Below, piece after piece: positions 1,324-36,000 of a stretch of DNA of 64,000 nt. The position numbers and the translations under genes are program-made. Within the stretch, counting starts at the first letter, position 1, and each line of letters starts with the position of its first letter. The stretch spans positions 12,680-76,679 of the forward strand of contig JACQWC010000013.1 of NCBI GenBank assembly GCA_016209635.1. The letters run 5' to 3'. This stretch comes from Candidatus Rokuibacteriota bacterium. Lineage in GTDB: Bacteria > Methylomirabilota > Methylomirabilia > Rokubacteriales > CSP1-6. The notes below the pieces were generated by a model, which ran no database searches, was not told the DNA's origin, and saw only the letters and a program-made list of their open reading frames with translations.

Positions 1324-3479
1324 CCTGGCGCCACCTCGACCGGCCGCCCCTCGCGCCGGGAGGTCTCGATCGCGAGCGTAGCCAGCGTCGTCGCCACGTA
1401 GGCGGCGAACGGCACGGGCGCGGGCCCGCCCCGCCGGACGGCGTCGAAGAACACCTGCATCTCTCGCCGGTGGCCACGGTCCACGGAGAGCCGCCGCAGG
1501 CGGCGCGTGCGCCCACCCCGCGTTACCGCCGCCCGCGAGAAATCGTCGATCACGCCGGCCGCGCCTCCGCGGAACACCTCGACGCGCTCCCGCGCAAAGG
1601 CCTTGTCGCCGCTCGCCGTGTACACGATGGAGGCGAGTGAGCCGTCAGCGAGCCGCAGCACGACGGCGAGGTCGTCAGCGCGCCCGGCGGCCGTCTCGGC
1701 CTGCACACGCACCACGCGAGCACCAGCGAGCGCCTGGACGAGGTCCACGAAATGGCAGACCTCGCCGAGGACCCGCCCCCCGCCCTCCACCGGATCCTGC
1801 GTCCAGTGGCCAGATGGGATCGCTCCAGCGTTGACGCGGCAGTGGATCACGGCCGACCCCGAGTCGGCCGGCATCTGCTGTCTCATCCACTCGGTGAAAG
1901 GCGAGAAGCGCCGGTTGAAGCCGACCATCACGATGGCGGCTCCGCTCGCGACGTGCGCGGCCTGCACCGCGGCGAGCTCGTCCGGCGTGAGCGCAAGCGG
2001 CTTCTCGACGAAGACGTGCTTGCCGGCCTCCAACGCCTGGATCGCCAGGGCCGCGTGGCTATCGTGCCGGGTGGTGATCAGGACCGCATCAACATCCTTG
2101 TCGGTGATGGCCTGGCGAGAATCGGTCGTGCACGACTCGAAGCCGAACCGGCGGGCGGCGTTCTCGGCGCTGACCCCGCGGGTCGCGGCAACCATGCGCC
2201 ACCGGATGTCCCCGAGGCGCCTGATCACGGGGAGGAGCGTGCCGCGGGCGAACTGCCCCGGCCCGACGAGCGCGATCGACACCACGCGCCCCTGGCGTGG
2301 GCTGTCGGCCGCGGGGGCGACGACGACGTCGACGCGCCGATCGAGCGACGGCGTCCCCGGATAGGTCAGGACCACGCCGAGCGCCTGCTCATGGCGCCGG
2401 TCCGATATCAGCGCGTAGGCGTCCAGCGCACGCTCGATCGGGAACCGGTGCGTCACGAGCCGGTCGAGGTGAAGCTGACCTCGCTCACACAGGGCCAGGA
2501 ACTCCTCGAGGTTCCGGCGTGCCGTCCAGCGCGCGAAGGCGTACGGGTAGTCGAGTCCCCGCTCGATGTACTCCGGGTCGAAGAGGCCGGGGCCCCAGGC
2601 GCGCGAGACGACCAGCTCGAGTTCCCTGTCAAAGAAAATCGCGCGCGGGACGTCGAGACCGACCGTGCCCGTCGCGACGATGCGCCCACGCTCCCGGCAT
2701 GCCTCGGCCGCCAGGCGCAGGGGCTCGTCGCTGTCGGTCGCGGCCAAGATGATAGTGGCATCGACGCCGTGCCCGTCGGTGAAGGCCAGCACCGCCGCCC
2801 CAAGATTGTCACCGTCGCCGGCCACCACGACCTCGGCGCCGTGCTCACGCGCGAGCGCCGCCCGCATCTCGTCCGGGTCGCTGGCCAGCACGTGGGCGCC
2901 GGAGGCCCGGAGCACCTGCACCGCGAGTTGTCCCACGAGGCCGAGCCCGATCACGAGGATCCGGTCGCCGACGGTGACTTTCGCGAGCCGCACCGCGTGG
3001 AGCGCAGTCCCACCGAGCGCGCCGAAGGCCGCGGCGTCGAACGCGACCGCGTCGGGGATGCGTGCGCACAGCGCGGCCGGCACGGCCACCACCTCCGCGT
3101 GAGAGGCGAAACCGGCGCCCGCGCACGCCACCCGCTGCCCGGGGGCGAAGTCACTCACGTCGTCACCGCACTCGAGCACGGTGCCGCTGGATGAGTAACC
3201 CAGCGGCGTCGGCGCCTCCAGCCGTCCCATCGCCTGGCGATACGCCTCGAGCGGCCCTTCGGCCCGCGCCTTGTTGAGCACCTGCCGCACCAGGTCCGGC
3301 CGCGCCAGCGCCTTGCCCAGGAGGGACTTCCGCGCCATCTCGAGCATCGCCCGCTCGGTGCCGACGCTGACGACGGAGGCCGCGGTGGCGACCAGCACTT
3401 CGCCGCGCCGTGGAGCCGGCACCGGCACGTCGCGGACGGAGAGCTCGCCGGTCCGGTAGGACTGCACCACCTGCTTCAC
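1320..3479 (-). CDS. Bi-domain oxidoreductase: MDR/zinc-type alcohol dehydrogenase domain fused to Gfo/Idh/MocA domain
   Basis: ORF track gives 1320-3497. I prefer GTG 3479, which forms a GTGA overlap with the upstream stop, and VKQVVQSYRTGELSV is the usual N-terminus. N-half has the Rossmann segment VIGLGLVGQL; C-half has IALVGPGQFARG...HVFVEKPLAL typical of Gfo/Idh/MocA. Confidence 0.85.
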   Translation of the reverse strand: MKQVVQSYRTGELSVRDVPVPAPRRGEVLVATAASVVSVGTERAMLEMARKSLLGKALARPDLVRQVLNKARAEGPLEAYRQAMGRLEAPTPLGYSSSGTVLECGDDVSDFAPGQRVACAGAGFASHAEVVAVPAALCARIPDAVAFDAAAFGALGGTALHAVRLAKVTVGDRILVIGLGLVGQLAVQVLRASGAHVLASDPDEMRAALAREHGAEVVVAGDGDNLGAAVLAFTDGHGVDATIILAATDSDEPLRLAAEACRERGRIVATGTVGLDVPRAIFFDRELELVVSRAWGPGLFDPEYIERGLDYPYAFARWTARRNLEEFLALCERGQLHLDRLVTHRFPIERALDAYALISDRRHEQALGVVLTYPGTPSLDRRVDVVVAPAADSPRQGRVVSIALVGPGQFARGTLLPVIRRLGDIRWRMVAATRGVSAENAARRFGFESCTTDSRQAITDKDVDAVLITTRHDSHAALAIQALEAGKHVFVEKPLALTPDELAAVQAAHVASGAAIVMVGFNRRFSPFTEWMRQQMPADSGSAVIHCRVNAGAIPSGHWTQDPVEGGGRVLGEVCHFVDLVQALAGARVVRVQAETAAGRADDLAVVLRLADGSLASIVYTASGDKAFARERVEVFRGGAAGVIDDFSRAAVTRGGRTRRLRRLSVDRGHRREMQVFFDAVRRGGPAPVPFAAYVATTLATLAIETSRREGRPVEVAPG

Positions 3480-4555
3480 GCCGCCCCCACCCGCCACACC
3501 GAGGTGACCTCATCGTTGTCGCGCACCGCCACGCCGGTGGCAGCCAGTAGCCCACGGTCGCTCCGGCCCGATGCGAAGACGATGTTGGGGTACTGGAACA
3601 GCCGCCCTGGCCACCGGTCACGGCGCCACGCGAGCAGCTGCTGCCAGCCGTCGGCCTCCGAGCCGCCGTAGAGACGGGCGAGAGGCGAGGTGTTCCGTCG
3701 GCTCGGCTCCACCGCCGTTGAGAAGAACACGCGCCCACCCGCCTGGGCGCTCCAGAAGCAGGAGCCGCTGATGGGCGCAAGCCGCTGCAGGTCCCCCCGG
3801 CGATCGAGCCGGTAGATCCAGTTTTGTTCGGCGGGCGTGTCGGTCGCGAAGTAGAGCGCCTCCGGCGTCGGCTGCAGCGTCACCGCGCGCGCCTGCTGGC
3901 TTCCTTCCACGACGGTCTCGCACCGCCGCCAGTCCGGCGAGACCTTCCAGATTGCGCTCTCGCGGTCGTCGTCGCCGGTGAGCACCCAGAGACAGTCAGC
4001 GAACCCGTCGTAGACGACGCCGTGCACGTGCCGGACCACGCCGGCGGCAAACGTGTGCACGATGTCCCAGTGCTGGCCGCCGTCGCGCGATCCGTAGACG
4101 TGCACCGCCTCGCGATGCGGATTCGAGAAGTACTCGCCCCAGAAGACGTGGCCCTGGGGGGTGACGGCGAGCGCGAGTGGGCGCGTCCCCCGTGTCACCC
4201 GGTGGGTCACCTCGAAGCGCGCCCCGCCGGCCCGCAACACCACGATGGCGCCGGCCACGGCGGCGACCAGCGTGCCGTCCGGCAGCGTCGCCAGCGCGTG
4301 AAACCCGTCGCGGAACAGCCGCGCGGTCGGGCGCCAGCGCCCGGTCGCGCGCCGCCAGGGCCTAGCGTCGAACCGGCCGACGGGTGCCGGAGGCACGCCG
4401 GCCCCAGGGTCGAGACGGAAGAGGCGGTATCCCGACGACACGTACAACGCCCCGCCGTTCCACGCCAGCGCGCGCAGGCCACGCAGCCGCACGACCGGCT
4501 CCAGCCGGGGCAGGACGCTATCGCGTGACGAGACAGTGGCCAAGCGCGAGCGCAT
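3476..4555 (-). CDS. Hypothetical protein, probable beta-propeller with a BNR/Asp-box motif
   Basis: 359-aa ORF in the operon frame with no obvious TM segment. It has one clear Asp-box (SRDGGQHW) and a strand-rich repetitive pattern. Function not assignable from sequence. Confidence 0.6.
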   Translation of the reverse strand: MRSRLATVSSRDSVLPRLEPVVRLRGLRALAWNGGALYVSSGYRLFRLDPGAGVPPAPVGRFDARPWRRATGRWRPTARLFRDGFHALATLPDGTLVAAVAGAIVVLRAGGARFEVTHRVTRGTRPLALAVTPQGHVFWGEYFSNPHREAVHVYGSRDGGQHWDIVHTFAAGVVRHVHGVVYDGFADCLWVLTGDDDRESAIWKVSPDWRRCETVVEGSQQARAVTLQPTPEALYFATDTPAEQNWIYRLDRRGDLQRLAPISGSCFWSAQAGGRVFFSTAVEPSRRNTSPLARLYGGSEADGWQQLLAWRRDRWPGRLFQYPNIVFASGRSDRGLLAATGVAVRDNDEVTSVWRVGAA

Positions 4556-6242
4556 CCATGCGCGTACGCAGGAAGCACTCGATGGCCTCCTCGGGCGCGC
4601 ACACGATCGGTTCGTTCTCGTTGAAGGACGTGTTGAGGACCACCGGCACGCCGGTGAGCCCGGCGAACTCCTTGATGAGCTGCCAGTACATTGGGTTGTC
4701 CTCTCGCCGAACGGTCTGCAGCCGCCCGCTGCCGTCCACGTGCGTCACGGCCGGGATCGTCGACCGCCGCTCCGGCCGGACGCCGTAGATCTTGACCATG
4801 AATGGCTCCGGGTATGTCTGGTCAAAGTACTCCCCCACCGACTCGAGGAGGATCGAGGGCGCGAACGGCCGGAACGGCTCCCGGTGCTTCACGCGGGCAT
4901 TGAGCACGTCCTTCATCTCGGCGCGCCGCGGGTCGGCGACGATGCTGCGATTGCCGAGCGCGCGGGGCCCCCACTCCATCCGGCCCTGGAACCAGCCGAC
5001 CACCTTGCCGTCCGCCACGGTCGCTGCCACGCGCCGCGCCAGGGACTCCTCGTCGAGCCGCTGGAAGGGAAGGCCGTGCCGGGCGAGCGCCCGCTCGACG
5101 GCGGCCGCGTCGTACGCCGGCCCCGTGTAGGAGCGCTCCAGCACGAAGCCGCGCGGTGCGCCGAGCACCTGATGAAGGATGTAGTAGCAGACGCCCATGG
5201 CCGTCCCCGCGTCGTTCGCCGCCGGCTGAACGAAGACGTCGCCGAAGTCCGTGGCGGACAGGATCTTACCGTTGAACGCGCTGTTGAGAGCCACGCCACC
5301 GGCCAGACAGATAGCACGCAGCCGGGTCTCGGCCGCCAGCCTCCGCACGAGTGCGAACTCCGCTTCCTCGAGGACGGCCTGGAGGGACGCCGCCACGTTC
5401 GCGTGATGCGCGGTCAGCTCGCCCCGGTACCCACGCGGCGGGCCCAGCGCCGCGACCAGCTTCGGCGAGTACATCGTGCCGACCTCGGGCTCGCCGTCGT
5501 CCCACGTGAGCGAGACCTCGCCCCGTTGGTGGAGGAAGTAGTCGAGGTCCAGCTCGAACGTCCCGTCCCGCGCGACGCGCAGGATGCGCCGGAAGAGGTC
5601 GAGGAAGACTGGCTCGCCCAGCGGGGCCAGCCCCATTACCTTGCCCTCGTCTCCGTACTTCGGGAACCCGAGCCACTGCGAGACCGCGGTGTAGAGGAAC
5701 CCGAGCGAGTGCGGGAAGTTGATCTCGCCGTCCACCTTGATCTGGCCGTCGCGCCCTACGCCCCACATGGTGCTGACGAAGTCGCCCATGCCGTCCACCG
5801 AGAGCACGACCGCCTCGCTGAACGGCGAGACGAAGAAGGCGCTGGCCATGTGGGCCAGATGGTGCTCGACGTGATGGAACTCGGCCTTCAGGTCCGAAGG
5901 CGCCACCCGCACGGCCTCGCAGAACGTCGCCTTGAGGTCGCGCAACCGGACGGCCTGTGCGAGGCGGCTCTTCAGGAAGTCGAGCCGGGGACGGCCGGAG
6001 AGCGCGAACTTCGCCTTCTTCAAGAGATTCGCCGACGGGTCGCGCGAGATCCCCACGTGATCGAGGTCCGCGACGGTCATGCCCCCCTCGCGCAGGCAGA
6101 ACTCGATCGAGCGCGTCGGGAAGCCCGCCCAGTACTTCACCCGGCGCAGGCGCTCCTCCTCGATCGCCGCCACGGGAACGCCGTCCCGTACCAGGCAGGC
6201 CGAGGAGCCGCCGTGGTAGGCGTTGATCCCGAGGATGTTCAT
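4518..6242 (-). CDS. Carbamoyltransferase (NodU/CmcH family)
   Basis: 574 aa. N-terminus MNILGINAYHGGSSACLVRDG and the overall layout (ASKHA-like N-domain, YrdC-like C-part) are characteristic of NodU/CmcH O-carbamoyltransferases. ATG 6242 overlaps the ACP stop (ATGA). Confidence 0.9.
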   Translation of the reverse strand: MNILGINAYHGGSSACLVRDGVPVAAIEEERLRRVKYWAGFPTRSIEFCLREGGMTVADLDHVGISRDPSANLLKKAKFALSGRPRLDFLKSRLAQAVRLRDLKATFCEAVRVAPSDLKAEFHHVEHHLAHMASAFFVSPFSEAVVLSVDGMGDFVSTMWGVGRDGQIKVDGEINFPHSLGFLYTAVSQWLGFPKYGDEGKVMGLAPLGEPVFLDLFRRILRVARDGTFELDLDYFLHQRGEVSLTWDDGEPEVGTMYSPKLVAALGPPRGYRGELTAHHANVAASLQAVLEEAEFALVRRLAAETRLRAICLAGGVALNSAFNGKILSATDFGDVFVQPAANDAGTAMGVCYYILHQVLGAPRGFVLERSYTGPAYDAAAVERALARHGLPFQRLDEESLARRVAATVADGKVVGWFQGRMEWGPRALGNRSIVADPRRAEMKDVLNARVKHREPFRPFAPSILLESVGEYFDQTYPEPFMVKIYGVRPERRSTIPAVTHVDGSGRLQTVRREDNPMYWQLIKEFAGLTGVPVVLNTSFNENEPIVCAPEEAIECFLRTRMDALALGHCLVTR

Positions 6243-6496
6243 CGCGCCGCGGCGGCCCCGACGCGCTCGACCATGGCGAGCATCTCCCTCACGGTCTCGA
6301 AGTGCTCGGGACGCGCCTTGCCCCTCGGGATGCGTCGCCCGGTCACGCGCTCCACCGCAAGGAGCAACTCTACCAGCGCGAACGAGTCGATGAGACCGGA
6401 GGACAGGAGGGGCGTGTCCTCCGCGAGCGGGAGCCCGGGATCCTTGATCAGCGTCGTCCTCAAGAAGGCGATGATCTGGCCCGCCCTAGCGTCCAA
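6239..6496 (-). CDS. Acyl/peptidyl carrier protein
   Basis: 85 aa. Phosphopantetheine-attachment motif GLIDSFALVELL (Ser of DSF). Non-ATG (TTG) start as given by the ORF track, overlapping the end of the ligase gene by 11 nt. Confidence 0.8.
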   Translation of the reverse strand: MDARAGQIIAFLRTTLIKDPGLPLAEDTPLLSSGLIDSFALVELLLAVERVTGRRIPRGKARPEHFETVREMLAMVERVGAAAAR

Positions 6497-8195
6497 GCGA
6501 TCCCTCGGTGTCCAGCTCCGGATGCTCCTGGAGGAATTTCCGCCGGTTCGTCGAACGTGCCGGCTTGCCAGCCGTGCTCTTGACCATCCAGCGCGGCGGG
6601 ACGACCCAGACGACCCGCGGCGCGACTCCCAGGTGATTCGTCAACCGCCTTCGCACCTCCAGCTCGATCTCCCGCTTCCGAACCAGCCGGTCCGCGTGCT
6701 CGGCTTCGACGACCACCACGATGTCATGGGTGCCCAGGGACGGATTGCGCACACCGAACGCCACCGCCCTGCCGTCGTGGACGTCAGGGTGGCCGCACGC
6801 GACCTCTTCGATATCCTGGGGATGAAAATTCTCCCCGCCGACAATGATTACATCATCCTTCCGTCCAAGCACGTACAGGTTTCTGTCGAGGACGAACCCT
6901 AGGTCCCCGCTGTGGTACCAGCCTTCCCGCAGGGCCCGCCCTGTGAGGTCGGGACGGTTGAAGTACCCCTGGAACAGCGAGTCGCTCCGGATCAGGATCT
7001 CCCCCACTCGCCCGGGCGCCAGCTCCTCCCCGTCGTCGCGCACGATGCGGATCAGGTTGCCGGGCAGGCACTCGCCGGACGAGACGAGCGTCAGCGCGGC
7101 TGGCGGGTCCGCCGGAACCCGTGTGACGACGCCCTCGCGTCGGAGCGCTTCGCCGTCCACGGTCACCGCCGGCGGGCCCGCCGGCGCGCCCGGCCTAGAG
7201 TGGGTCACCGCAAACGTGTTCTCCGCCATCGCGTAGCAGGTGGCCAGCGCCTCGCGGCGGAAGCCGGACGGCTCGTAGGCCGCGACGAACTCGTCGAGAC
7301 TCCGCTGGAGCACCGGCTCCGAGCAGTTGACCACGGCCCTGAGCGAGCGGAGGTCCAGCCCGGTCTTGTATTCCTCAGGGACGCGCCGCGCGAGGAACTG
7401 GAACGCGAAGTTCGGCAGCCAGCACAGCGTCGCGCGGTGGCGTGTAGCCAGCTCGAGGAGGCTCGATGGTTGCACGACCCAGTCGGTAGGTGACAGCAAG
7501 ACCAGGCGCAGGTGGCACGCGAGCGAGAGGACGAGGCACGCGATGAGGCCCATGTCGTGATAGAGCGGGAGCCAGCTCACGATGCAGTCGTCCCGCCCGA
7601 CCCCGAGCGCGTCCGAGAGATGACGGAGCTGCGCCAGCACCGACCGGTGCGAGAGCGAGACTCCCTTCTGGAGGCCGGTGGTCCCGGCCGAGTGCTGGAT
7701 GAAGGCGATGTCGCCAGGACCGGCGGCGTGCGTCCGGGCTGGCTCCTCGCACGCCGACGGCTCTCGATCGGCGAAGACGACTGGGGCCAACTCACCGATC
7801 AGCCCAGAGAGGTGGGCAGGGAACTCCCGGTCGAGCACGACGGCGCGCGCCTGGAGGTTGCGCGACACTCCCGCGAGGCCGTCGCGGTACTTCGCCGGAT
7901 CGGCCTTGAATGTCGGGTATGCGAGGATCGCCGGCACCTGACCGCCCAGGAGGGCGCCCACGAACGAGGCCAAGAGGGGGATCCCCTGCGGCAGAACGAG
8001 AATGACCCGATCGCCCGGCCCGAGTCCCCCAGCCTCCAGCCGCGCCCGGTAACGCTGCGCCAGGGCGAGGAACTCGCCCCAGGTCAGCGTCTCCTCCTCG
8101 GGTGACCGCTCCGGCGACCACATCGTGACGAAGCGACGCGCCGCGGGCGCTGCGAGCAACGCCTCGACGAGCGTCGTGCACCCCTGCGGGATCAT
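6486..8195 (-). CDS. Fatty acyl-AMP ligase (FAAL-type adenylate-forming enzyme)
   Basis: The ORF track extends to 8666 across the MBOAT gene, but the ATG at 8195 (MIPQGC...) sits 2 nt after the MBOAT stop. AMP-binding motifs are present (IQHSAGTTGLQKGV, GWYHSGDLG, GRKDD), together with the FAAL-type LPLYHDMGL motif. Confidence 0.85.
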   Translation of the reverse strand: MIPQGCTTLVEALLAAPAARRFVTMWSPERSPEEETLTWGEFLALAQRYRARLEAGGLGPGDRVILVLPQGIPLLASFVGALLGGQVPAILAYPTFKADPAKYRDGLAGVSRNLQARAVVLDREFPAHLSGLIGELAPVVFADREPSACEEPARTHAAGPGDIAFIQHSAGTTGLQKGVSLSHRSVLAQLRHLSDALGVGRDDCIVSWLPLYHDMGLIACLVLSLACHLRLVLLSPTDWVVQPSSLLELATRHRATLCWLPNFAFQFLARRVPEEYKTGLDLRSLRAVVNCSEPVLQRSLDEFVAAYEPSGFRREALATCYAMAENTFAVTHSRPGAPAGPPAVTVDGEALRREGVVTRVPADPPAALTLVSSGECLPGNLIRIVRDDGEELAPGRVGEILIRSDSLFQGYFNRPDLTGRALREGWYHSGDLGFVLDRNLYVLGRKDDVIIVGGENFHPQDIEEVACGHPDVHDGRAVAFGVRNPSLGTHDIVVVVEAEHADRLVRKREIELEVRRRLTNHLGVAPRVVWVVPPRWMVKSTAGKPARSTNRRKFLQEHPELDTEGSLGR

Positions 8196-8197
8196 CC

Positions 8198-9583
8198 TCA
8201 GAACTGGAAGTACACGAACACCGACGACTGGTGGCTCCAGATGATGACCGCGATGACGAGCGCGCCGTAGTATGCCGGCCGTAGGACGGTCACGAGCCCA
8301 TCGACGCGGCGCGACGTCGCGAGCCGCGCGGCGATCCCGCGGCTCCAGCCGTACGCAAAGTACAGAGCCGCCACCAGCGCCACGAGGATGTAGAAGTTCG
8401 GCCGGAGCGAGAACGTCGCGTAACTCCACGGCGCCAGCAGGGCGCGCGTCAGCGCCCAGGCCTGGGCGAGATCGGCCGACCTGAACAGGAGCCATCCGTA
8501 CGACACGAGCAAGAACGTCGACACCCACGCGACGCTCTGCCACGCCGCGCGGAGCGCCGCCGGCGCGCCGCGTCCCGGCAGCCACGGCTGGACGGCGCGG
8601 TGGGCGACCTGCAGGAGCCCGTGATACAGCCCCCAGGCGACGAAGGTCCAGCCGACCCCGTGCCACATCCCGAATACCAGCATCGAGACGATCACGGCGA
8701 GATAGCGTCCCGGAGCATGCGGCAGGGCCGTGGCCAAGGGAAAGAACAGGTAGTCACGAATCCACCGCGACAGCGACATATGCCAGCGGCTCCAGAACGC
8801 CGCCGGTGAGTCGGCGAGGTAGGGGTGGTCGAAGTTCTCGGGCAGCCGGATGCCGAGCAGCCGCGCCGATCCGATCGCCACGTTGGAGTAGCCGGCGAAG
8901 TCGAAATAGAGCTGCAGCCCGAAGCCGATCGCCAGGAACCACGCGTCGATGCCGCTCCAGCCGCTGGCGAGACGATCGAACCCGAACGTCACGCCCTCCC
9001 CGACCTGGATCCCGGTCGCGAGCGTGTCGGCCACGACCATCTTCATGAAGAGGCCGGTCAGGATCTGGCGCGCGCCGACGGCCAGATCGTCCCACGAGGG
9101 ACGGCCGAGCGACCGAAGCTGCGGCACGATCCCGTGGACCCGTGTGATCGGACCGGCGAGCACCGTCGGCCAGAAAGCCATGTAGACCGCGAACTCGAGC
9201 AGCGTCGGCCGCGTGTCGTCCTCTCGGTACGTATCGATGAGATGGCTGAGTCCCTGGAAGGTGAAGAACGAGAGACCCACGGGGAGGGCGATCCGCTCCG
9301 ACCAGACGCCGCCGTACTTGAAGGCGCCCAGCAGCGCCACGTTCAAGGCGATGCCGCAGGCGAGGCTCCAGGCCGCCGGCCATCGCCGGATGACGATGGC
9401 CGCGCCGTGGTTGAGCAGGGTGCTCGCCAGGAGGAGCAGCGGAAGCCACACCCCCCAGGTGGCGTAGAAGAGGTAACTCAGAGCGAGCACCCCGAGCAGT
9501 CGTCGCCGCACCACGCCGGGCGCCGCGGCGACGGCGCACGCGACCGGCAGGAAGATCCAGTAGGACAGCGACTGGAACGTCAT
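8198..9583 (-). CDS. MBOAT family membrane O-acyltransferase (AlgI/DltB-like)
   Basis: 461 aa, polytopic. Conserved MBOAT region FWSRWHMSLSRWIRDYLFFPL...FGMWHG. ATG 9583 overlaps the upstream stop (ATGA). Confidence 0.9.
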   Translation of the reverse strand: MTFQSLSYWIFLPVACAVAAAPGVVRRRLLGVLALSYLFYATWGVWLPLLLLASTLLNHGAAIVIRRWPAAWSLACGIALNVALLGAFKYGGVWSERIALPVGLSFFTFQGLSHLIDTYREDDTRPTLLEFAVYMAFWPTVLAGPITRVHGIVPQLRSLGRPSWDDLAVGARQILTGLFMKMVVADTLATGIQVGEGVTFGFDRLASGWSGIDAWFLAIGFGLQLYFDFAGYSNVAIGSARLLGIRLPENFDHPYLADSPAAFWSRWHMSLSRWIRDYLFFPLATALPHAPGRYLAVIVSMLVFGMWHGVGWTFVAWGLYHGLLQVAHRAVQPWLPGRGAPAALRAAWQSVAWVSTFLLVSYGWLLFRSADLAQAWALTRALLAPWSYATFSLRPNFYILVALVAALYFAYGWSRGIAARLATSRRVDGLVTVLRPAYYGALVIAVIIWSHQSSVFVYFQF

Positions 9584-10809
9584 CGCGCCCGCCCCAGCAA
9601 TGGCTCGAGTCGCGGCCAGACGTCGGCCGCGAGGCGCTCGGCGAGCACGCGATGAGCGGCACCGGTGAAATGCGCGAAGTCCGGCTGGCCACCAATGCCG
9701 GAGGCATCGGTCTCCGGATAGTTCGTCCAGAGCGGCCCGGGGATGAGGCCCGTGTAGTCGAGGTACAGCGCCTCGTAGCGGCGGCAGAGGTCGGCCAGAT
9801 CGCGCCGGAAGCGCGCCACGTCCTCCTCGACGTACGAGTTCGGCTCGAGCGGACGGATCGGCGCGATGTAGAGCACCGCGGCGACCCTCTGCTCACGCAG
9901 GAGCCGCAGGCTCGCCGCGATGAGCTCGAGATTGGCGGCGTACATGGCCGGCGCGATCGGACGGCGCGTGGTCGTCCTGAACCCGAGCAGCGCGTTCCGC
10001 GTCGCGGTGTAGCGCAGGCTCAGGGCCGCGTGGAGGTCGCGCCGGGCCGCGAACAGCGGCAGCGCGCGCTCCGCCCATCCCTGAAGATGCTCTTCGATCG
10101 CTGCCATGGGCCGTTCCCGCCCCGCACGCGCGTCGGCCGACGGACCCGCCGCCGACGGCTGCACGGCCTCGAGCGCCCGCACGTCGGCCATGGCACGCGC
10201 GGCTGCGGCGAGCCGCGGCTCGGCGCTCACGACGCGCGCGATGGCGTCGCGCGCGTCGGCGTTACCCATGAGCCGGACGAGATCGGGCCGCGCCTCCACC
10301 CACCGCAGGCCGTCCAGCACGATCCCGACGATCACCGCGTCGGGCCCCTGAGACGGATTCGCCGTCGCCGCGACCAGCTTGATCAGCAGCTCCGACATGG
10401 TGAGGTTCGCGTCCGACGCCATCCGGATGGCGAACGGCTCGTCGCGGTCGCCGCCGTTCAGCGCCGACGCCAGCCAGGCCGCGACGATCCGATCACCGGG
10501 CCGCATGTCCATGATCGCCATCGTCTGCGAGTTGCCGATGAAGAGGACCGTCGCCCGGCCCGGAGCTCTCGCGGGAAGATCGCGCAGAACCCTCGCCACG
10601 AGAGGATCGGGACGGCCCTGCACTCCGGCTCGCGGCGTGAGGCGCCCTACCTCCCCCGCCGTCCCGAAGGTCAGGCGCGGGTCCTGCGCCGCCGCGAGCG
10701 GGTCGGTCGGCCGGCTCCGCGATACCCCCGCGTTCACCAGGAGCACGATCGCCACCGCCGTGATCGGCGTCACGCCGCGGCGGAGTGCGTGGCGGATCGG
10801 CCCGCTCAC
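9580..10809 (-). CDS. Membrane-anchored SGNH/DltD-like protein (probable periplasmic O-acyl transfer partner of the MBOAT)
   Basis: ORF track 9580-11490 is over-extended. GTG 10809 forms a GTGA overlap with the stop of the upstream GT2. It has an N-terminal TM anchor (TPITAVAIVLLVNAGV), an SGNH block-I-like VLFIGNSQT and a block-V-like DFAHFT (D-x-x-H). Confidence 0.6.
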   Translation of the reverse strand: MSGPIRHALRRGVTPITAVAIVLLVNAGVSRSRPTDPLAAAQDPRLTFGTAGEVGRLTPRAGVQGRPDPLVARVLRDLPARAPGRATVLFIGNSQTMAIMDMRPGDRIVAAWLASALNGGDRDEPFAIRMASDANLTMSELLIKLVAATANPSQGPDAVIVGIVLDGLRWVEARPDLVRLMGNADARDAIARVVSAEPRLAAAARAMADVRALEAVQPSAAGPSADARAGRERPMAAIEEHLQGWAERALPLFAARRDLHAALSLRYTATRNALLGFRTTTRRPIAPAMYAANLELIAASLRLLREQRVAAVLYIAPIRPLEPNSYVEEDVARFRRDLADLCRRYEALYLDYTGLIPGPLWTNYPETDASGIGGQPDFAHFTGAAHRVLAERLAADVWPRLEPLLGRAR

Positions 10810-11739: not shown

Positions 11740-13677
11740 TCATCCTGGAGGCATCGTCCGTCTGGCCGTGTAGCCCACATCCCCGTAGAGCAACCGCTTC
11801 ACCGGCCTGAACTCGCGAAGGATGTAGAGCGCCTCGTGCAACGGATCGGCGAGCGCCGAATCGTAGACGAGCCTCGTGCCGATGCGGCTGCGGAACATCC
11901 TCCTCGTGAACTCACTGAGCAGGGACCGTTCCAGCGTGAACCGATGAGAGAAGAACTTCGACGGTGGCTCGTTCAAGCGAACCCCGGCCAGCGAGTCGGC
12001 AAAGAGCCCCACCCGCCGGGCGACGACGAAGTGTCGTACGGTCCACGGATCGATCCCCATGATCTCGGCGCAGGCTCGCGACCCGGAGCCGATGTCCGTC
12101 GCAGCGACGAGCAGATTCATGGCCACCGCCTTGCCGGCCATCGGGCCGCTCTCGTCGAGAAAGTATGTTCCGTCGAACAGCGCCAAGCGTGGACGGAGGA
12201 GCATGTTCACGGCAACGATGGTATGCGCGAAGTCCGGATGGTACCGGAGACGCATCGGGCTCGGGATGCATCCGAACTGGTTCTTGAAGCCGAGACTCAG
12301 TCCGGTCATCGCGTGAACCTTGGGCACGGGCATCGTGATGAAAAAATCGGTCTCTTCGATGAGCAAGCGCGGCAACTCGACCGTGACCTCTCGCCCGTCG
12401 ACCTCTTGCCGACAGATCACGGCGGGAAGCTTCGTGAGATTCTCGACGTGGATCCCGTAGCGCGTCATGAGGTCGTACAGCCCGTGGGCTGCGAACGCTT
12501 CTTCAGCTTTGTACGAGTGGTACCCTCCATCCGACTCGCCGATCGTGATGTCGACGCCATAATCCCTCAGCGCCAGCACGGCCGCCTCGATGAACGCCGG
12601 CGTTGTCGTCACTCCCGGTGTCGGGTCCGGCCACGTCAAATTCGGTTTGATGAAAATCGACCGCTTGCCTCTCAGCAGGTCGCGTATCCCGAGCCACTCG
12701 AGGGCCGTCCGTATCCGCTCGACCAGTGTCTGCTGCGTGAGGTGCCCGATCCAGACAGCTGGCGGTGTCACCGCTTCGGCGCCTGCATCCGCGTGAAGGA
12801 GGTCTCTCGCGGACGCCGCCCGAAGAGGAGCCGACCGCCTGGCCCGAGCTTTCTCGTAGTACTTGGCGCTGATGAGGAACGGGTACCAGAAATGCATCAG
12901 CACCGCGTACGCCAGGCCCGGAGCGCCATCGAGAAAACCCAGTTGAATAATGTAGCGAAGGACAAAAAGAAGGACGGGGCGGACGAACATCGGGACCCGA
13001 TGCCAGATCGCCTCCCGCAACCAGCGTGAGCGCTTCAGCTCCACGTACTCCGACGCCGTTGCGCTGGCCAGCCGCCTCTTCCCAGCGCCGGTGAGGAGCT
13101 CTTCCACCTCCCATTCCGCCATCATGTTGGCCTTGGTGATCCAGGCCGTCAATCCACGCTTGTTCTCGTGAATCATGTCGTGCCGGAGCGTTTGGACCTT
13201 TCCACGGATCGCGAGATACTCGCGGCCCCCGGCGTCGATGACTCGTGCGAGGTGCTTGCGGAACAGCCGAACCTCGGGCATCGGATAGTTCGCGCCGAAT
13301 CGGAGCCAGCGACCGAGGAAGTAGAACCGACGTTTGATGTAGAACCCGTCGACTCCCTCCGGGTGACGATCGAACAGCTCGCGAATTTCCTCCAGCAACT
13401 CCGGCGTGAGGCGCTCGTCCGCGTCGAGATGCAGGACCCAGTCGTGACGGATCGCCAGGTTGTCGAGCCCCCAGTTCCGCTGAGCGGCGAAGTTCTCGAA
13501 CTGGTGGAGATGGACGTTCGACGTGTACTGCCGGGCGATCTCCTGGGTCCTATCGGTGCTGAATGAGTCGACGACAAACACTTCGTCCGCGAAGCCGGCC
13601 ACACTCTCCAGACACGGACCGATGTCGCGTTCCGAGTTGTAGCTCAGGACGAGCGCCGACAGGGGCACAGTGCCCAT
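11740..13677 (-). CDS. Fusion protein: glycosyltransferase family 2 domain + DUF362 domain
   Basis: 645 aa. The N-half (LVLSYNSERDIGPCL...HLDADERL...GFLDGAPGLAY) is a GT2 paralogous to 10806-11672. The C-half (IFIKPNLTWPDPTPGVTTTP...ITIGESDGG...PKVHAMTGLSLGFKNQFGC) matches the DUF362 pattern. Confidence 0.8.
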   Translation of the reverse strand: MGTVPLSALVLSYNSERDIGPCLESVAGFADEVFVVDSFSTDRTQEIARQYTSNVHLHQFENFAAQRNWGLDNLAIRHDWVLHLDADERLTPELLEEIRELFDRHPEGVDGFYIKRRFYFLGRWLRFGANYPMPEVRLFRKHLARVIDAGGREYLAIRGKVQTLRHDMIHENKRGLTAWITKANMMAEWEVEELLTGAGKRRLASATASEYVELKRSRWLREAIWHRVPMFVRPVLLFVLRYIIQLGFLDGAPGLAYAVLMHFWYPFLISAKYYEKARARRSAPLRAASARDLLHADAGAEAVTPPAVWIGHLTQQTLVERIRTALEWLGIRDLLRGKRSIFIKPNLTWPDPTPGVTTTPAFIEAAVLALRDYGVDITIGESDGGYHSYKAEEAFAAHGLYDLMTRYGIHVENLTKLPAVICRQEVDGREVTVELPRLLIEETDFFITMPVPKVHAMTGLSLGFKNQFGCIPSPMRLRYHPDFAHTIVAVNMLLRPRLALFDGTYFLDESGPMAGKAVAMNLLVAATDIGSGSRACAEIMGIDPWTVRHFVVARRVGLFADSLAGVRLNEPPSKFFSHRFTLERSLLSEFTRRMFRSRIGTRLVYDSALADPLHEALYILREFRPVKRLLYGDVGYTARRTMPPG

Positions 13678-14552: not shown

Positions 14553-15220
14553 ACCACCCCGCTTCCCTTTTGACCTATGACACCGAGCGTGGGACTGAGA
14601 ATCGGGTGGCGCAGCCACGGCGCCCGGGCCCAGAAAAAGCGGAGCTGTGGCCCAAGTCCGCCAGCGGACAACGCGGCGCGCAGCACATGATGCCGGAGCC
14701 GGCCGTCGTTCCGGTCTCCCGACGTCATAAGCAGGAATCGCAAGAGCACTGCCGGGTTGGCGAAGTTCGGCTCGATCCCCAGGTAGATCCCGGCGGGAGC
14801 GAGTACGCGCGAAATCTCCGCGGCGGCGCGTTCAAGCGGGCGGAAGCGGAACAGCACGCCGCTGCCCCAGACGACATCGAATGCCCCGGCCGCGAAAGGC
14901 AATTCGAACGCGTCGCCGACGACGAAACGAACCGGGGCTGGCTGCCCACGAGACATCGCCGGCCCGAGCCGGGCCGCGATCAGATCGAGGTTCACGTACA
15001 GTCGCGGAGCGGTCGCCGCGCACACCATCCGACCGTGCAGACACTCGCCGGCGCCGAGGTCGAGGACTCGCTTGCCGTCGAAGTAGCGATGGTACTCCCC
15101 GAGAAACGAACGGTAGTAGGCGTCGAGGTAGCCGAAGCGGCCGTCAGAAATCGTCCGGGACTCCGAGTAGTACTGGCGCTCCGCTCCGTGGTCGAACGCA
15201 GTGGACGAGAGGCGTCTCAC
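14549..15220 (-). CDS. Class I SAM-dependent methyltransferase
   Basis: 223 aa. Motif I VLDLGAGECLHG and downstream FDVVWGSGVLF. GTG 15220 overlaps the upstream stop (GTGA). Confidence 0.8.
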   Translation of the reverse strand: MRRLSSTAFDHGAERQYYSESRTISDGRFGYLDAYYRSFLGEYHRYFDGKRVLDLGAGECLHGRMVCAATAPRLYVNLDLIAARLGPAMSRGQPAPVRFVVGDAFELPFAAGAFDVVWGSGVLFRFRPLERAAAEISRVLAPAGIYLGIEPNFANPAVLLRFLLMTSGDRNDGRLRHHVLRAALSAGGLGPQLRFFWARAPWLRHPILSPTLGVIGQKGSGVV

Positions 15221-16311: not shown

Positions 16312-16321
16312 GCTTCGGATC

Positions 16322-23745: not shown

Positions 23746-23775
23746 GTCGCATTGAGCGAGACTCCACGCACCCGG

Positions 23776-28456: not shown

Positions 28457-29604
28457 TGAGTCCAACCGACTGCGTGGAGGAAGCGGTTCTCGAAGTGAGA
28501 GAAGAGATACCGATCTTCGAGCCGACTTCGACCGGCCCGGCCCATGGTCTGGGCCGCTTCCGGGTCCTTGAGCAGCCGGCAAAGCGCGTCAGCCAGGAGG
28601 CGGGGATCGTGAGGCTCCGCCAGGAGGAGCCCGGTCTTGCCGTCGACGATCACGTCGCGCGCCGCATCCAGGGTCCCGCCAATGCAGGGCTTGGACCACC
28701 GCATCGCCTCCAGGTACACGAGACCGAACCCTTCGCCCTTGCTCGGCATGGCGAAGACGGCGCAGCGCGCGTAGAGCGCATCTCGGACCTCGTCGCTCAC
28801 GAACCCGGGCAGGAAAACGTGTTGACCGATCCCCTCAGCGAGGGCAAGCGCCCTCAGCTCGTCGATCCAGTCCCCGCCACCTGCCAGCACCAGCTCAGCG
28901 GCCGGAAAGCGCTCGCGAACGAGCGGCAACGCCCGGATAAGGGCGTCCTGGCCCTTGTGACGCTGGTCGCGCCACAACCGCCCGACGCAGAGCACGATCT
29001 GCGATCCGAGTTCGCGCTGCTCGCCCGAGGCCGTCAGCAGGCTCAAGGGGATCCCCGGCGCGGCCACGTCCAGGGGGAGCTTGGGATCAAGGGCTAGCTC
29101 GCACACTGTAACCAGGAGCCCCGGAAAGCGGGCGTGCAACGCGGCGCGGGTGGTCGGCGATATCGCGAGCCGCCGCTCGGCACCGAACAGCGTGAGTCGC
29201 CGGCGCCACGAGAGAAGCCCCGACGACAGCTCTAGTCCGTTGCACGAGACACTGTATCGACACAGGCGGAGCCGGCTGAGGGGATAAAGGACACTAGCAA
29301 CTCCGACTTGGTCCGTGAAGATCAGGTCCCAGCGCCGTACGAGCACTTCACGCCAGGCCGCTCCTACAAACCCGCCCAGACGCTCGCCGAACGGTCGCCA
29401 GATCGTACGCGCGGGATCGACATAGAACGGATCGAGCGGTGTCAATGACGGCTCATTCAGGGCCAAGACCGTCACGCGAGTCCGTCCACCATCGAACTTC
29501 GTCAGAGCCTTCAGCACGAGCCGATTCAACGCCGCCACGCCTCCTCCCACACCGAAGGCGCCCGTGATGCAGCAGAGCACCCGCCTGTCCTGGCGCGGTG
29601 TCAT
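28453..29604 (-). CDS. Glycosyltransferase family 4
   Basis: Start at ATG 29604 (ATGA overlap). GT4 block MPSKGEGFGLVYLEAMRWSKPCIGG...VDGKTGLL. Confidence 0.85.
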   Translation of the reverse strand: MTPRQDRRVLCCITGAFGVGGGVAALNRLVLKALTKFDGGRTRVTVLALNEPSLTPLDPFYVDPARTIWRPFGERLGGFVGAAWREVLVRRWDLIFTDQVGVASVLYPLSRLRLCRYSVSCNGLELSSGLLSWRRRLTLFGAERRLAISPTTRAALHARFPGLLVTVCELALDPKLPLDVAAPGIPLSLLTASGEQRELGSQIVLCVGRLWRDQRHKGQDALIRALPLVRERFPAAELVLAGGGDWIDELRALALAEGIGQHVFLPGFVSDEVRDALYARCAVFAMPSKGEGFGLVYLEAMRWSKPCIGGTLDAARDVIVDGKTGLLLAEPHDPRLLADALCRLLKDPEAAQTMGRAGRSRLEDRYLFSHFENRFLHAVGWTQ

Positions 29605-31109
29605 CGACCGCGGCGGCTGCAGAGCCACAGCAGCGAGATCCAGATCGCCCAGTTCTTCACGTCGAGCACGAACATCTGCCAGAATGCCGAGGCGGTCAGG
29701 AACGCGACGGCGTACACCGGGAAACCCAGCTCCAGGCTCGACCGCCTGATAAGCCAGTCGTAGCGTGTCTGCAGATACATACCATGCAACAGGGAGAGAA
29801 TCAGGACTCCCCAGGGGCCGAAGTTAAGGTAGAACTCGCTCACGTAGTCGATGGCGATCCCACCCCGCTGGTCGGCTTCGAAGTACGTCTGGTAGGTGAA
29901 CAGGCCTGCCCGATAGGCCAATCCCTGGACGTACTGGAGCACATTGGGCTTGTCCGGGTCGAGTATCCGCGGCACGAGCCCGCTGACGACGACGCGAGCG
30001 CTCTCGCCGAGCAGATATGGATACGGGTCGGGCGCAATCCGCTGGTAACTGGCCACGTATGTCGCCGGGTACGTCGTCGATCGCACCAGCTCGATCAATC
30101 CCGCCAGCTTCGGCTCGTCCCCAGCGTTGAGGTCTTCCATGGTCCGCTGGATCGCCTCTTCGACTGGCACCAGGCCACCCATCCGATGATACTTATACAC
30201 GCTCAGCAAGGGGAACACGCCGAAGCTGAACACCAGGAAGCTCGCCAGAAACCCGACGAGCAGCTTCCGCGACGGCTTGCCCCTCACGCCGATCAAGCTC
30301 CACAAGTAATAGATCACGACGAACATCAGCACACTGCGAGCGCCGAGGAACAGCCCGACGCCGCAGTACACGACCACGACCGTACCCGCGACGAGACGCC
30401 AGGCGATCACATGCGTAGTACCGCGCAGGAGGCGCACAAACCCGCATACCATCAACACGAGCCCGAACGTGCCGACAATGTACACGGTCTGCTGGATCTC
30501 GCCTGGAGCCTGGTCGCTGTACGAATACAGGTAGGCGGCGACGGTCAACGGTACGATCAGGAGCGCCCGGAACGGGAATTTCCCTTCGTCCTCCACCCAG
30601 GCGAGCCTGGGTAGGCTGCGCGCGATCGGCAAAACGGGGACGCACAACCCCACGTACGTTCCCAGCGCTCCAATCATGATCAGCCAACTCGCCCTCGGGA
30701 TGCTCTCCTGCAGCTCGAACACTTCGCGCGGGTCCCAGGTCATGTAGTCGACGAAGAACTCGCCGTACAGGACGAACAGCATCCCGATCCCGTACTGCAG
30801 CACGAAGAGGTAAAGCATGTGGATGAATGACGGCGACAGCCATGGGTTCTCACCCGCTAGACGGCTCCTTCTGAAGCCAAGTGCCGTCAGCCACACAACG
30901 TTGATGACCGCGGCCCACGCCGCCACGGCCTTCGGCATACCGATGACGATCTCGGGGATCAGGAGAAGTAGCCCGGCCACCAAGACCGGCAGGATCACCG
31001 GACGCACAACATCTGTGTCTCGTCGTCGAGCCAGCGCCCCCACTCCGACCGCAACTCCCACGTTCGGTGTCCCCGTCTTCACGTTATCTCTCGGCCTTCT
31101 GCGTCTCAC
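29601..31109 (-). CDS. Polytopic membrane protein, putative repeat-unit polymerase (Wzy-like)
   Basis: 502 aa with more than 10 hydrophobic segments and no soluble domain. Its position among GTs next to a Wzx-type flippase suggests Wzy. There is no diagnostic motif, and the start (GTG 31109) is uncertain. Confidence 0.5.
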   Translation of the reverse strand: MRRRRPRDNVKTGTPNVGVAVGVGALARRRDTDVVRPVILPVLVAGLLLLIPEIVIGMPKAVAAWAAVINVVWLTALGFRRSRLAGENPWLSPSFIHMLYLFVLQYGIGMLFVLYGEFFVDYMTWDPREVFELQESIPRASWLIMIGALGTYVGLCVPVLPIARSLPRLAWVEDEGKFPFRALLIVPLTVAAYLYSYSDQAPGEIQQTVYIVGTFGLVLMVCGFVRLLRGTTHVIAWRLVAGTVVVVYCGVGLFLGARSVLMFVVIYYLWSLIGVRGKPSRKLLVGFLASFLVFSFGVFPLLSVYKYHRMGGLVPVEEAIQRTMEDLNAGDEPKLAGLIELVRSTTYPATYVASYQRIAPDPYPYLLGESARVVVSGLVPRILDPDKPNVLQYVQGLAYRAGLFTYQTYFEADQRGGIAIDYVSEFYLNFGPWGVLILSLLHGMYLQTRYDWLIRRSSLELGFPVYAVAFLTASAFWQMFVLDVKNWAIWISLLWLCSRRGR

Positions 31110-35662: not shown

Positions 35663-36000
35663 TGAGTTTCCGGCGACACGTTCGCGAATTTCTCGCGGCT
35701 GATGGCCGACCCGTTGTTTAGCGTCCCCGCCTTGCGCGCCGTGACGACTAGCCCGTTGGGTCCCTCGCTCGTGCCGAAGCGGGCCCGCTCGATATACGGG
35801 AGGCCGAACCACCGCACGACGCGGCGCTTGAGGCGAACACCACACGATTCACCCGGCCGAAGATTTTCCGCCCGCTGAGCGACAAGCAGATGATGTTCAC
35901 CACCAAGTTGAGCGGATGGGGGAAGCACATGTACAGCTGTCTGAGCCCGCCCTGGGACCGCTGCTCGTCGATGAATCCGCTGTCCTCGGAACCATTTGGC
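35647..36000 (-). pseudogene. Coding-like remnant split over two reading frames (unknown family)
   Basis: In my hand counts over 20-codon stretches, third-position GC is 18/20 in one minus frame for 35650-35820 and 16-18/20 in a different minus frame for 35850-35995. No single ORF covers both stretches. The local GC dip is about 52 percent at 35881-35940. Confidence 0.3.

Follow-up and report, generated by a model that had tools for sequence, protein, structure and literature searches.

Why does a bacterial glycan cluster bring together an enzyme that would activate a carboxylic acid, a small carrier protein, an O-acyltransferase of the membrane-bound type (MBOAT), and a membrane-anchored partner protein? 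The question is raised by a 64,000-nt stretch of DNA from an uncultured bacterium of soil, on the Candidatus Rokuibacteriota contig JACQWC010000013.1 (the window, whose first letter is position 1 of all window coordinates given here), in which a four-gene cassette on the minus strand (10809-6239) encodes, in this order, a predicted SGNH-fold protein that we call X409, an MBOAT, a ligase of the fatty acyl-AMP ligase (FAAL) type, and a carrier protein. Published lists of bacterial MBOAT systems name only AlgI, PatA, WssH, and DltB, with a carrier in Dlt alone (PMC9558356, PMC12148441). According to a 2025 paper in the Journal of Biological Chemistry, no MBOAT/SGNH pathway apart from Dlt has a carrier protein (PMC12148441), in agreement with the initial annotation of this locus, which held Dlt to be the only understood MBOAT system that uses one. 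From the evidence assembled here, all of it computational, we think it probable, by sequence and by analogy with known systems, that the cassette encodes a carrier-fed MBOAT-SGNH relay that O-acylates the polysaccharide of its cluster outside the cytoplasm, the identity of the carboxylic acid being left open.

The proteins of the cassette

Four packed minus-strand genes and a NodU/CmcH-type carbamoyltransferase gene directly after them are all present where the initial annotation had placed them (Table 1). The junctions are tight: a glycosyltransferase family 2 (GT2) gene and the X409 gene share a GTGA overlap, X409 and MBOAT as well as carrier and carbamoyltransferase share ATGA overlaps, the MBOAT and ligase genes are separated by 2 nt, and the ligase gene overlaps by 11 nt that of the carrier, which starts with TTG. 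Such junctions fit a single translationally coupled unit. The boundaries of the last four genes are identical to those of the NCBI proteins MBI4634952.1 to MBI4634949.1 from a Candidatus Rokubacteria metagenome-assembled genome (MAG), in which X409 is the hypothetical protein HY727_01260; the names given there are "hypothetical," "MBOAT family," "AMP-binding," "acyl carrier protein," and "carbamoyltransferase." The GC content of the window is high (62-74%). The motifs described earlier were also recovered, namely GNSQ (residues 92-95) and DFAH (residues 377-380) in X409, LPLYHDMGL (residues 209-217) in the ligase, and the serine of IDSFA (Ser38, codon 6385-6383) in the carrier.

Table 1. Positions of the cassette genes, their landmarks, and associated genes in the window
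Feature	Positions	Strand	Family match or proposed role
X409, 409-aa predicted SGNH-fold protein	9580..10809	minus	proposed final acyltransferase
Candidate catalytic residues of X409: Ser94, Asn135, Asp377, His380	10530-10528 (Ser94 codon); 9681-9670 (codons of Asp377 to His380)		
MBOAT, 461 aa	8198..9583	minus	proposed trans-membrane acyl conduit; PF03062
FVYFQF, C-terminal hexapeptide of the MBOAT (residues 456-461)	8201..8218	minus	FxYxxF acyl-shuttle motif, Tyr458
FAAL-type adenylating enzyme, 569 aa	6486..8195	minus	proposed carrier loader; PF00501
Carrier protein, 85 aa	6239..6496	minus	PF00550; Ser38 predicted phosphopantetheine site
NodU/CmcH-type carbamoyltransferase, 574 aa	4518..6242	minus	PF02543 + PF16861
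Wzy-type polymerase	29601..31109	minus	PF14296, E 3e-10

The ligase matches PF00501 with an E-value of 3e-49, and its top NCBIfam model is the fatty acyl-AMP ligase PRK09192 (341 bits against a cut-off of 600), with FadD32, MbtM, and FAAL28 as further matches, all under their curated cut-offs; we therefore treat it as a FAAL-type enzyme that belongs to no named equivalog. Its best matches in the PDB (3pbk at 2e-67, 3kxw, and 7r7e-g) comprise the E. coli and Legionella FAALs and the FAAL domains of polyketide synthases (PKSs). Residues 314-416 align almost gap-free with the E. coli FAAL, and models of acyl-coenzyme A (CoA) synthetases cover the protein only as two separate stretches. No DltA model (TIGR01734 or PRK04813) occurs among its 25 best NCBIfam matches and no DltA among its 60 best PDB matches, and the amino acid adenylation model (AA-adenyl-dom) reaches 123 bits against a cut-off of 317.4, so that the earlier description of the enzyme as FAAL-type rather than DltA stands. 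Some FAALs of the same subfamily (P0242 and P0297; 712-722 aa) carry N-terminal PAS domains (PF13426, PF08448, and PF00989), which hints at sensory control of loading.

The carrier passes its Pfam threshold narrowly (PF00550, 21.0 bits against 20.8), and with its DSF serine it bears out what had been described. Seven orthologues share the invariant residues G34, I36, D37, S38, A40, and L41 within a core of G-[LM]-I-D-S-[FL]-A-L. In a profile search of the PDB, the best match was 6cxt (3.8e-10), followed by the type II carriers PigG and PltL (~2e-6) and, lower down, DltC (1.6e-3); the two DltC models score 20.8 bits against 68 (PRK05087) and 17.2 bits against 52.35 (TIGR01688).

The MBOAT assignment is borne out by a PF03062 match (E 1.1e-20), by a catalytic histidine, His308 (codon 8662-8660), that lies in a WHG motif and is invariant among homologues, and by a DltB-like predicted fold. 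Because the DltB equivalog TIGR04091 scores 174 bits against a cut-off of 375, the protein is, as judged from its sequence, homologous to DltB yet not a DltB equivalog. Its sole match among PDB sequences is DltB (E 1.4e-32), with the WHG histidine aligned; DltB is to our knowledge the only bacterial MBOAT with a solved structure. The AlphaFold2 (AF2) model (pLDDT 87.4, pTM 0.86) likewise finds DltB as its best fold match (6bug; E 7e-14, TM-score 0.71), and the next matches are PORCN (E 3.5e-9) and HHAT (2.6e-7). In two Blastocatellia orthologues (L002:11185-12603 and L004:645-2051), WHE stands for WHG at the catalytic histidine and YQG for YHG a few residues on.

The last six residues of the MBOAT, FVYFQF, are identical in six of six orthologues; F456, V457, and Y458 are invariant across 44 homologues, and an xxYxxF terminus is found in 80 of the 81 related MBOATs that were tabulated, the window's own included. 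In characterized systems, FxYxxF is an acyl shuttle whose invariant tyrosine takes the acyl group from the MBOAT and passes it to a serine of the SGNH partner; the motif resides on the microprotein DltX in Dlt and is fused C-terminally, via two extra helices, in PatA, AlgI, and other MBOATs (PMC12148441). In the AF2 model, two helices (residues 395-422 and 425-450) precede the motif, which itself falls in a low-confidence and presumably flexible tail. The architecture is thus of the PatA/AlgI type, with two extra C-terminal helices and a fused shuttle, and no DltX is needed.

X409 begins with a single hydrophobic helix that forms a membrane anchor and has no match in Pfam or NCBIfam at E 0.01, including ALGX and Lipase_GDSL_2; a profile of its 33-sequence alignment (A1) retrieved nothing from the PDB sequences at E < 0.5. 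None of its 47 close relatives has a name, and a profile search of 1.84 billion representatives retrieved 868 of them at E 1e-3 or better. Residues invariant in the alignment include N93, S94, D101, N135, D377, and H380. Its AF2 model (pLDDT 79.5, pTM 0.76) comprises a transmembrane helix (residues 3-30) and an alpha/beta domain interrupted by a large helical insert (~165-306). Within this domain, S94 follows directly on strand 86-91, N135 comes after strand 126-130, and D377-x-x-H380 stands just before the last helix, which are the canonical places of SGNH blocks I, III, and V. Foldseek placed SGNH/GDSL-type proteins or scaffolds at ranks 1-49 of the 50 matches listed (best E 9.5e-4), with TM-scores of 0.72-0.74 for E. 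coli TesA and 0.49-0.56 for the peptidoglycan O-acetyltransferase PatB. Structure prediction alone provided an assignment, the sequence-family searches having come back empty, and on that model X409 is predicted to have an SGNH fold. Of the earlier label "SGNH/DltD-like," the first half is upheld and the second is not, because DltD emerged neither as a sequence match nor within the 50 best fold matches.

The same fold results raise the question of whether X409 might be a hydrolase, either a thioesterase or an esterase by which acyl groups are edited or removed, with the MBOAT acylating the acceptor directly. TesA and GDSL esterases outscore the transferase PatB in the fold comparison, and the fold alone cannot tell an esterase from a transferase. 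We nevertheless consider a hydrolase quite improbable: X409 is membrane-anchored, its gene adjoins and is translationally coupled to that of the MBOAT, with which it co-evolves, and its helical insert is not found in simple esterases. The MBOAT also keeps the tyrosine tail, whose only known role is the hand-off to an SGNH protein (PMC12148441). A catalytic histidine, an FxYxxF motif on extra helices, and an adjoining, anchored SGNH-fold partner with a candidate triad are the marks of an MBOAT-SGNH acyltransferase, and all of them are found here.

Because the gene content recalls dltA, dltB, dltC, and dltD, with DltB as the MBOAT's best match in the PDB and with weak matches of DltC models to the carrier, we also considered a genuine dlt operon for D-alanylation. 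The comparison fails at each component: the ligase sides with FAALs, the MBOAT and the carrier stay far below the cut-offs of the DltB model and of both DltC models, X409 has no similarity to DltD, and the shuttle motif is on the MBOAT and not on a separate DltX. The host is a Rokubacteria MAG, and truly DltA-like loaders, such as one from a related metagenome locus (L027, below), differ strongly from the window ligase, to which that enzyme is merely 23% identical. A true dlt operon is hence refuted by sequence, every component failing its family test, and we give it next to no credence, in line with the initial annotation, which had set the locus apart from ordinary dlt operons.

Conservation of the cassette and exchange of its loader

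The locus searches were pattern-based and returned the closest relatives, and the counts below apply to this clade. A scan of 185,579 species genomes located X409 in four MAGs, of which two are Blastocatellia and the others a member of Tepidisphaerales and a member of Acidobacteriaceae, a lower bound given the pattern-based scan. The order X409-MBOAT-FAAL-carrier is kept in all four, the Acidobacteriaceae locus (L005) being frameshifted. Loci L002, L003, L004, L006, L007, L009, and L010 have X409-MBOAT-FAAL with the carrier next wherever the contig reaches, and shorter fragments of the same order occur in L008, L011, and L012. At least seven loci other than that of the window have the four-gene order, from Acidobacteriota, Planctomycetota, and unassigned metagenome contigs, and no cultivated organism appears among the best matches of any homologue search. 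As the order of the four genes is repeated in other phyla, the arrangement is not a matter of chance, and their co-conservation, on which the earlier proposal depended, is evident. The contigs long enough to give context (L002, L006, L007, and L010) are glycan clusters rich in glycosyltransferase (GT) genes; on the long metagenome contigs L006 and L007, GT4, Wzy, AT3, Bac_transf, and Poly_export surround the four genes.

To place the cassette in a wider family, we scanned metagenomes with the MBOAT alignment and examined the 80 closest loci, whose MBOATs are 40-69% identical to that of the window; at large, metagenomes contain 972 related MBOATs (E 1e-60 or better) and over 6000 related FAALs (E 1e-100 or better). 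A carrier gene is present in 24 of 24 loci with an MBOAT 40-50% identical and at least 3 kb on both sides, and a recognizable loader in 21 of these 24. Gene orders vary, from X409-MBOAT-FAAL-ACP (acyl carrier protein) to FAAL-ACP-MBOAT-partner and to divergent ACP/FAAL genes opposite the MBOAT. In most loci the loader is a FAAL, 45-57% identical to that of the window. Beside other close MBOAT relatives it is a DltA-like, FkbH-domain, or LnmK-family protein, and every sampled example has a carrier gene.

The alternative loaders are distinct in family and setting. Locus L027 (2475-6049) encodes a DltA-like amino acid adenylation enzyme (TIGR01733, 323 bits, above cut-off), a different carrier of 83 aa, an SGNH-like partner of family c3, and an MBOAT of a 517-aa type whose C-terminus matches Pfam DUF5989. 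The same type of cassette also occurs in L016, L022, L029, L036, L037, and L087; by their sequences, these loci appear to be Dlt-like aminoacylation systems of soil metagenomes. FkbH enzymes make glyceryl-carrier and LnmK makes propionyl-carrier. In L030 (34-3574; also L028 and L055:3361-6955), the MBOAT has FIYTLF as its terminus, and after it come a carrier of 77 aa (EWDSLSA) and a protein with an FkbH domain; TIGR01686 scores 301-316 bits on these proteins of L055 and L030 (316 bits for L030); this would be a glyceryl-carrier-fed version and a possible route to glycerate esters of polysaccharides. A propionyl-carrier-fed variant is suggested by L082 (9266-12632), where an MBOAT and a c3 partner lie next to two overlapping genes, one for an LnmK-family acyltransferase/decarboxylase (TIGR04098, 132 bits) and one for a carrier from the same family as the window's. 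Judged by the sampled loaders, the acyl group would be fatty acyl with a FAAL, aminoacyl with a DltA-like enzyme, glyceryl with FkbH, and propionyl with LnmK.

The partner varies as well. We found at least five other SGNH partner families, all of which carry a hydrophobic segment at the N-terminus together with G-x-S and D/x-x-H blocks; some of these families reach Pfam Lipase_GDSL_2 or ALGX. The hidden Markov model (HMM) of X409 detects none of the partner families c3, c4, and c14; hhalign gives a 40% probability against the GDSL-positive family c14 (block I only) and 2% against c3, though with a collinear alignment. Given these failed links, we treat X409 and the other partners as separate SGNH-like families. 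In a neighbor-joining tree of the MBOATs, clades follow the SGNH partner family, which fits a physical MBOAT-SGNH pair, and FAAL loaders appear in nearly all clades. The cassette belongs, as one branch, to a large modular family of MBOAT-SGNH systems associated with carriers, in which single modules such as the loader are replaced and the carrier is always kept by the MBOAT-SGNH pair. Nothing else found here speaks as strongly for the carrier as donor of the MBOAT, and such module swapping is hard to explain otherwise.

These patterns bear directly on a simpler account, ordinary O-acetylation, in which the MBOAT-SGNH pair would take acetyl-CoA as do PatAB, AlgIJ, and WssHI, and the FAAL and carrier would serve another glycan step, such as N-acylation of an amino sugar made by the DegT aminotransferase of the cluster (15217-16380) or synthesis of a lipid anchor. 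The fused FxYxxF tail is of the PatA/AlgI type, and all characterized MBOATs with that architecture use acetyl-CoA (PMC12148441); in addition, the cluster has an aminotransferase and no obvious N-acyltransferase, and FAAL-carrier pairs of the subfamily also exist without an MBOAT. Yet a carrier gene accompanies the MBOAT clade in all 24 loci and in several gene orders, the loader changes among four enzyme classes while the set of carrier, MBOAT, and SGNH partner stays, and no other acyltransferase that could unload the carrier is conserved alongside. DegT is not conserved in the other cassette loci, and separate AT3 acyltransferases in L006 and L007 could supply acetylation there. We accordingly regard ordinary O-acetylation as improbable, and prefer the carrier-fed relay.

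Carrier-ligase pairs of this subfamily do have a life outside the cassette. The idea that they always accompany an MBOAT was rejected: among six sampled loci, three have an MBOAT and an SGNH partner (L090, L091, and L092), one has an insertion element instead (L088), and two have no MBOAT. In these last two (L089:4157-9060 and L093:7001-8752), the FAALs are 54-55% identical to that of the window with no MBOAT in the 7-kb flanks, and one of them adjoins a PMT_2 (ArnT-like) gene and two genes for proteins without Pfam matches. The FAAL subfamily thus has at least one other use. The loci L088 (5789-6955) and L092 (5328-6749) are otherwise collinear, with radical-SAM genes and PMT_2 before, and FAAL and carrier after, the one point where they differ; there, L092 has the MBOAT and L088 an insertion element (HTH_Tnp_1 and rve), so that L088 looks, by its gene content, like a natural MBOAT knock-out.

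The proposed relay and its likely acceptor

The gene set, the folds and motifs, the conserved synteny, and the clade-wide association with a carrier are matters of observation; homology and gene context are the grounds on which we infer the acid, the acceptor, and each chemical step. In the relay that we propose, the FAAL-type enzyme would adenylate a free carboxylic acid, most likely a fatty acid, and load it as a thioester onto the phosphopantetheine arm of carrier Ser38. The acyl-carrier would dock at the cytoplasmic face of the MBOAT, and catalysis by His308 would move the acyl group to the periplasmic side, onto Tyr458 of the flexible FVYFQF tail. The acylated tail would pass its group to Ser94 of X409 (putative triad Ser94/His380/Asp377, with Asn135 as the oxyanion residue), and X409 would transfer it to a hydroxyl of the Wzy-dependent glycan. 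The path from carrier to MBOAT, tyrosine, SGNH serine, and polymer is established for Dlt, and that from the C-terminal tyrosine of an MBOAT to an SGNH protein is established for PatAB (PMC12148441). The Dlt-type logic that the initial annotation had read from the gene set (ligase, carrier, MBOAT, and SGNH protein, with a FAAL, in a glycan cluster) is supported by the ligase, fold, and synteny results. We hold the relay itself, with neither acceptor nor acid specified, to be highly likely.

Several points weigh against this interpretation, the first being that for every member of the family the relay is predicted from sequence. The use of acetyl-CoA by the characterized fused-tail MBOATs makes a CoA donor conceivable for the window MBOAT too. 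The 24-of-24 carrier figure describes the closest-relative clade only, since the 80 loci are the nearest relatives of the query MBOAT, and the FAAL subfamily is not exclusive to MBOAT contexts, as the two of six sampled loci show. The Foldseek E-values behind the SGNH model of X409 are marginal (~1e-3). The ligase scores under the curated FAAL cut-offs of NCBIfam, and no clean FAAL-specific insertion was isolated, the pairwise BLAST against the DltA-like enzyme of L027 being too gapped. Finally, MBOATs ~45% identical to that of the window pair with small-acyl loaders (glyceryl, propionyl, and aminoacyl), which means that the acid may here be short or functionalized and not a long fatty acid.

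On the nature of the acyl group, then, the evidence is balanced. A true fatty acid is favored by the family of the ligase; against it stand the small-acyl loaders of the sister systems and the gene content of the cluster, in which no ketosynthase (KS), ketoreductase (KR), or other chain-modifying gene was found. We put the chance that the group is a true fatty acid at about even. The fuller picture, in which a large undescribed modular class of carrier-fed MBOAT-SGNH machines sets the acyl group of extracellular glycans by swapping the loader and the window's member places a fatty acyl ester on an exopolysaccharide outside the cytoplasm, is offered tentatively, as a conjunction somewhat more likely to fail than to hold. 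If true, it would be a bacterial counterpart of the eukaryotic MBOAT lipidation by HHAT, PORCN, and GOAT, and it would yield an amphiphilic or membrane-anchored polymer.

The acceptor is suggested by the neighborhood. From position 79 to ~41,800, the window is one long minus-strand run of glycan-synthesis genes, with many GT1/GT2/GT4 genes, the DegT aminotransferase, epimerases/dehydratases, methyltransferases, and nucleotidyltransferases. The Wzy gene (Table 1) marks this glycan pathway as Wzy-dependent, and the acceptor presumably comes from it. The cluster had been called a Wzx/Wzy cluster, of which the Wzy part was found and the Wzx part was not, no open reading frame having matched a Wzx/MOP flippase model in Pfam. 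A 570-aa protein with ~13 hydrophobic segments and no Pfam match (34133-35845, minus) is only a candidate for a Wzx-like flippase. On this neighborhood, we regard the polysaccharide of the cluster as the likely acceptor.

The relay could also operate as proposed on a different acceptor, such as a membrane glycolipid or lipopolysaccharide core, peptidoglycan, or a secreted protein. The neighborhood is the sole source for the polysaccharide, the best folds of the MBOAT after DltB are the protein-lipidating PORCN and HHAT, and some related cassettes adjoin PMT_2/ArnT-like genes and not Wzy genes. Against this, the X409-type loci with enough flanking sequence sit in GT-rich clusters, with Wzy, Bac_transf, or Poly_export in L006 and L007, and in the window, translational coupling joins the cassette to a GT2 gene at one end and to a sugar carbamoyltransferase gene at the other. 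An acceptor other than the polysaccharide therefore seems unlikely to us, and we keep the polysaccharide as the preferred one.

The carbamoyltransferase itself, which as described earlier comes directly after the carrier, matches PF02543 (185 bits, E 3e-54) and PF16861 (242 bits, E 4e-72). With 168 bits against a cut-off of 1000, it scores far below the NodU equivalog and is thus a family member and not NodU itself. Its gene also stands right after the carrier gene in L002, L007, and L010; it is located elsewhere in L005 and L038 and is absent from the examined flanks of L003 and L006. Given this inconsistent linkage, we rejected it as a core member of the cassette; it probably serves a separate, cytoplasmic O-carbamoylation step.

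The run holds other genes of note. Directly after the carbamoyltransferase gene, and overlapping it by 38 nt at the annotated start, lies a gene (3476-4555, minus) for a 359-aa protein without a Pfam or NCBIfam match. A 725-aa fusion (1320-3497, minus), located just downstream of the cassette, joins a zinc alcohol dehydrogenase (ADH_N/ADH_zinc_N) to a GFO/IDH/MocA oxidoreductase and appears from its domains to be an unusual two-dehydrogenase sugar-modifying enzyme. On the other side, a 645-aa fusion of GT2 and DUF362 (PF04015, E 8e-36; 11740-13677, minus) is followed by a second GT2 gene, whose stop overlaps the X409 start. Four unusual genes of the cluster, at 20975-25953 and 40940-41815 (both minus), are those for a 522-aa nucleotidyltransferase, a 401-aa class II aldolase-like protein, and a 725-aa protein with a phosphoribulokinase/uridine-kinase domain, and a transaldolase/FSA-like gene; jointly, these genes suggest synthesis of an unusual activated sugar. 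A 650-aa membrane protein with ~10 segments and a soluble C-terminal part (25890-27842, minus) has no Pfam match. Outside the glycan cluster, we noted genes for a HEPN-domain protein (47289-47930, minus) and for a 1089-aa protein that combines a zinc ribbon, an adenylate/guanylate cyclase, AAA_16, and TPR (55274-58543, minus).

Relation to known acyl transfer systems

In the open-access literature, we found no paper on an MBOAT together with a FAAL, FkbH, LnmK, or other AMP-ligase/carrier combination, and the statement that the combination has no characterized representative agrees with this. The cassette involves no new principle; it is an undescribed and apparently widespread extension of a known relay. 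If the relay is real, carrier-fed MBOAT-SGNH acylation would be a general, programmable route to non-acetyl esters, whether fatty, aminoacyl, glyceryl, or propionyl, on the glycans of soil bacteria of the Gram-negative type, and it would explain how unusual O-acyl substituents reach exported polysaccharides. It would predict amphiphilic polymers relevant to soil aggregation, biofilms, and bioemulsifiers, and would offer a natural test of how an MBOAT scaffold accepts a protein-bound donor while keeping its fused tyrosine shuttle.

Several known systems share parts of this arrangement. The Vibrio cholerae systems RfbK-O (tetronate N-acylation of perosamine) and AlmEFG (addition of glycine), which decorate glycans or lipid A, have a dedicated AMP ligase and a small carrier, encoded within a surface-glycan locus or close to one, that provide an uncommon acyl group; their transfer steps use soluble or LpxL-type acyltransferases on the cytoplasmic side, and no MBOAT-SGNH pair is known to take part. 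FAALs typically acylate carriers and not CoA, which fits the carrier gene next to that of the window ligase. The best matches of this ligase belong to FAAL-carrier pairs known from lipid and polyketide pathways (3pbk and 3kxw; FadD32-Pks13), whereas the downstream partner in the window is an MBOAT-SGNH pair and not a PKS, a nonribosomal peptide synthetase, or a lipid-assembly enzyme. The eukaryotic HHAT, PORCN, and GOAT, of which PORCN and HHAT are the second-best fold matches of the MBOAT, carry fatty acyl groups across a membrane to secreted substrates; unlike the proposed relay, they use acyl-CoA and acylate proteins directly, without a tyrosine shuttle or an SGNH partner.

The closest parallels are bacterial. 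PatAB, AlgI with AlgJ/AlgX, and WssH-WssI, which O-acetylate peptidoglycan, alginate, and cellulose, respectively, share with the cassette the two extra helices with FxYxxF, a separate SGNH partner that is periplasmic or anchored in the membrane, and the modification of a glycan outside the cytoplasm (PMC12148441). They differ in being acetyl-CoA users described without a ligase or a carrier, whereas the window cassette has a FAAL and a carrier that are co-conserved and predicted to be co-transcribed, and in their partners, since X409 matches no Pfam family, ALGX and Lipase_GDSL_2 included. DltABCD with DltX, which D-alanylates teichoic acids in Firmicutes, runs from an adenylating enzyme through a small carrier, an MBOAT, the tyrosine of FxYxxF, and a membrane-anchored SGNH protein to an envelope polymer (PMC12148441), and its DltB is the closest solved structure to the window MBOAT. 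Here, by contrast, the ligase is FAAL-type and not DltA, the shuttle is fused with no DltX, X409 has no detectable sequence similarity to DltD, and the context is a Wzy-type glycan cluster and not teichoic acid synthesis. For its cytoplasmic half, the system has its parallel in Dlt, and for its periplasmic half, in PatAB or AlgI-J.

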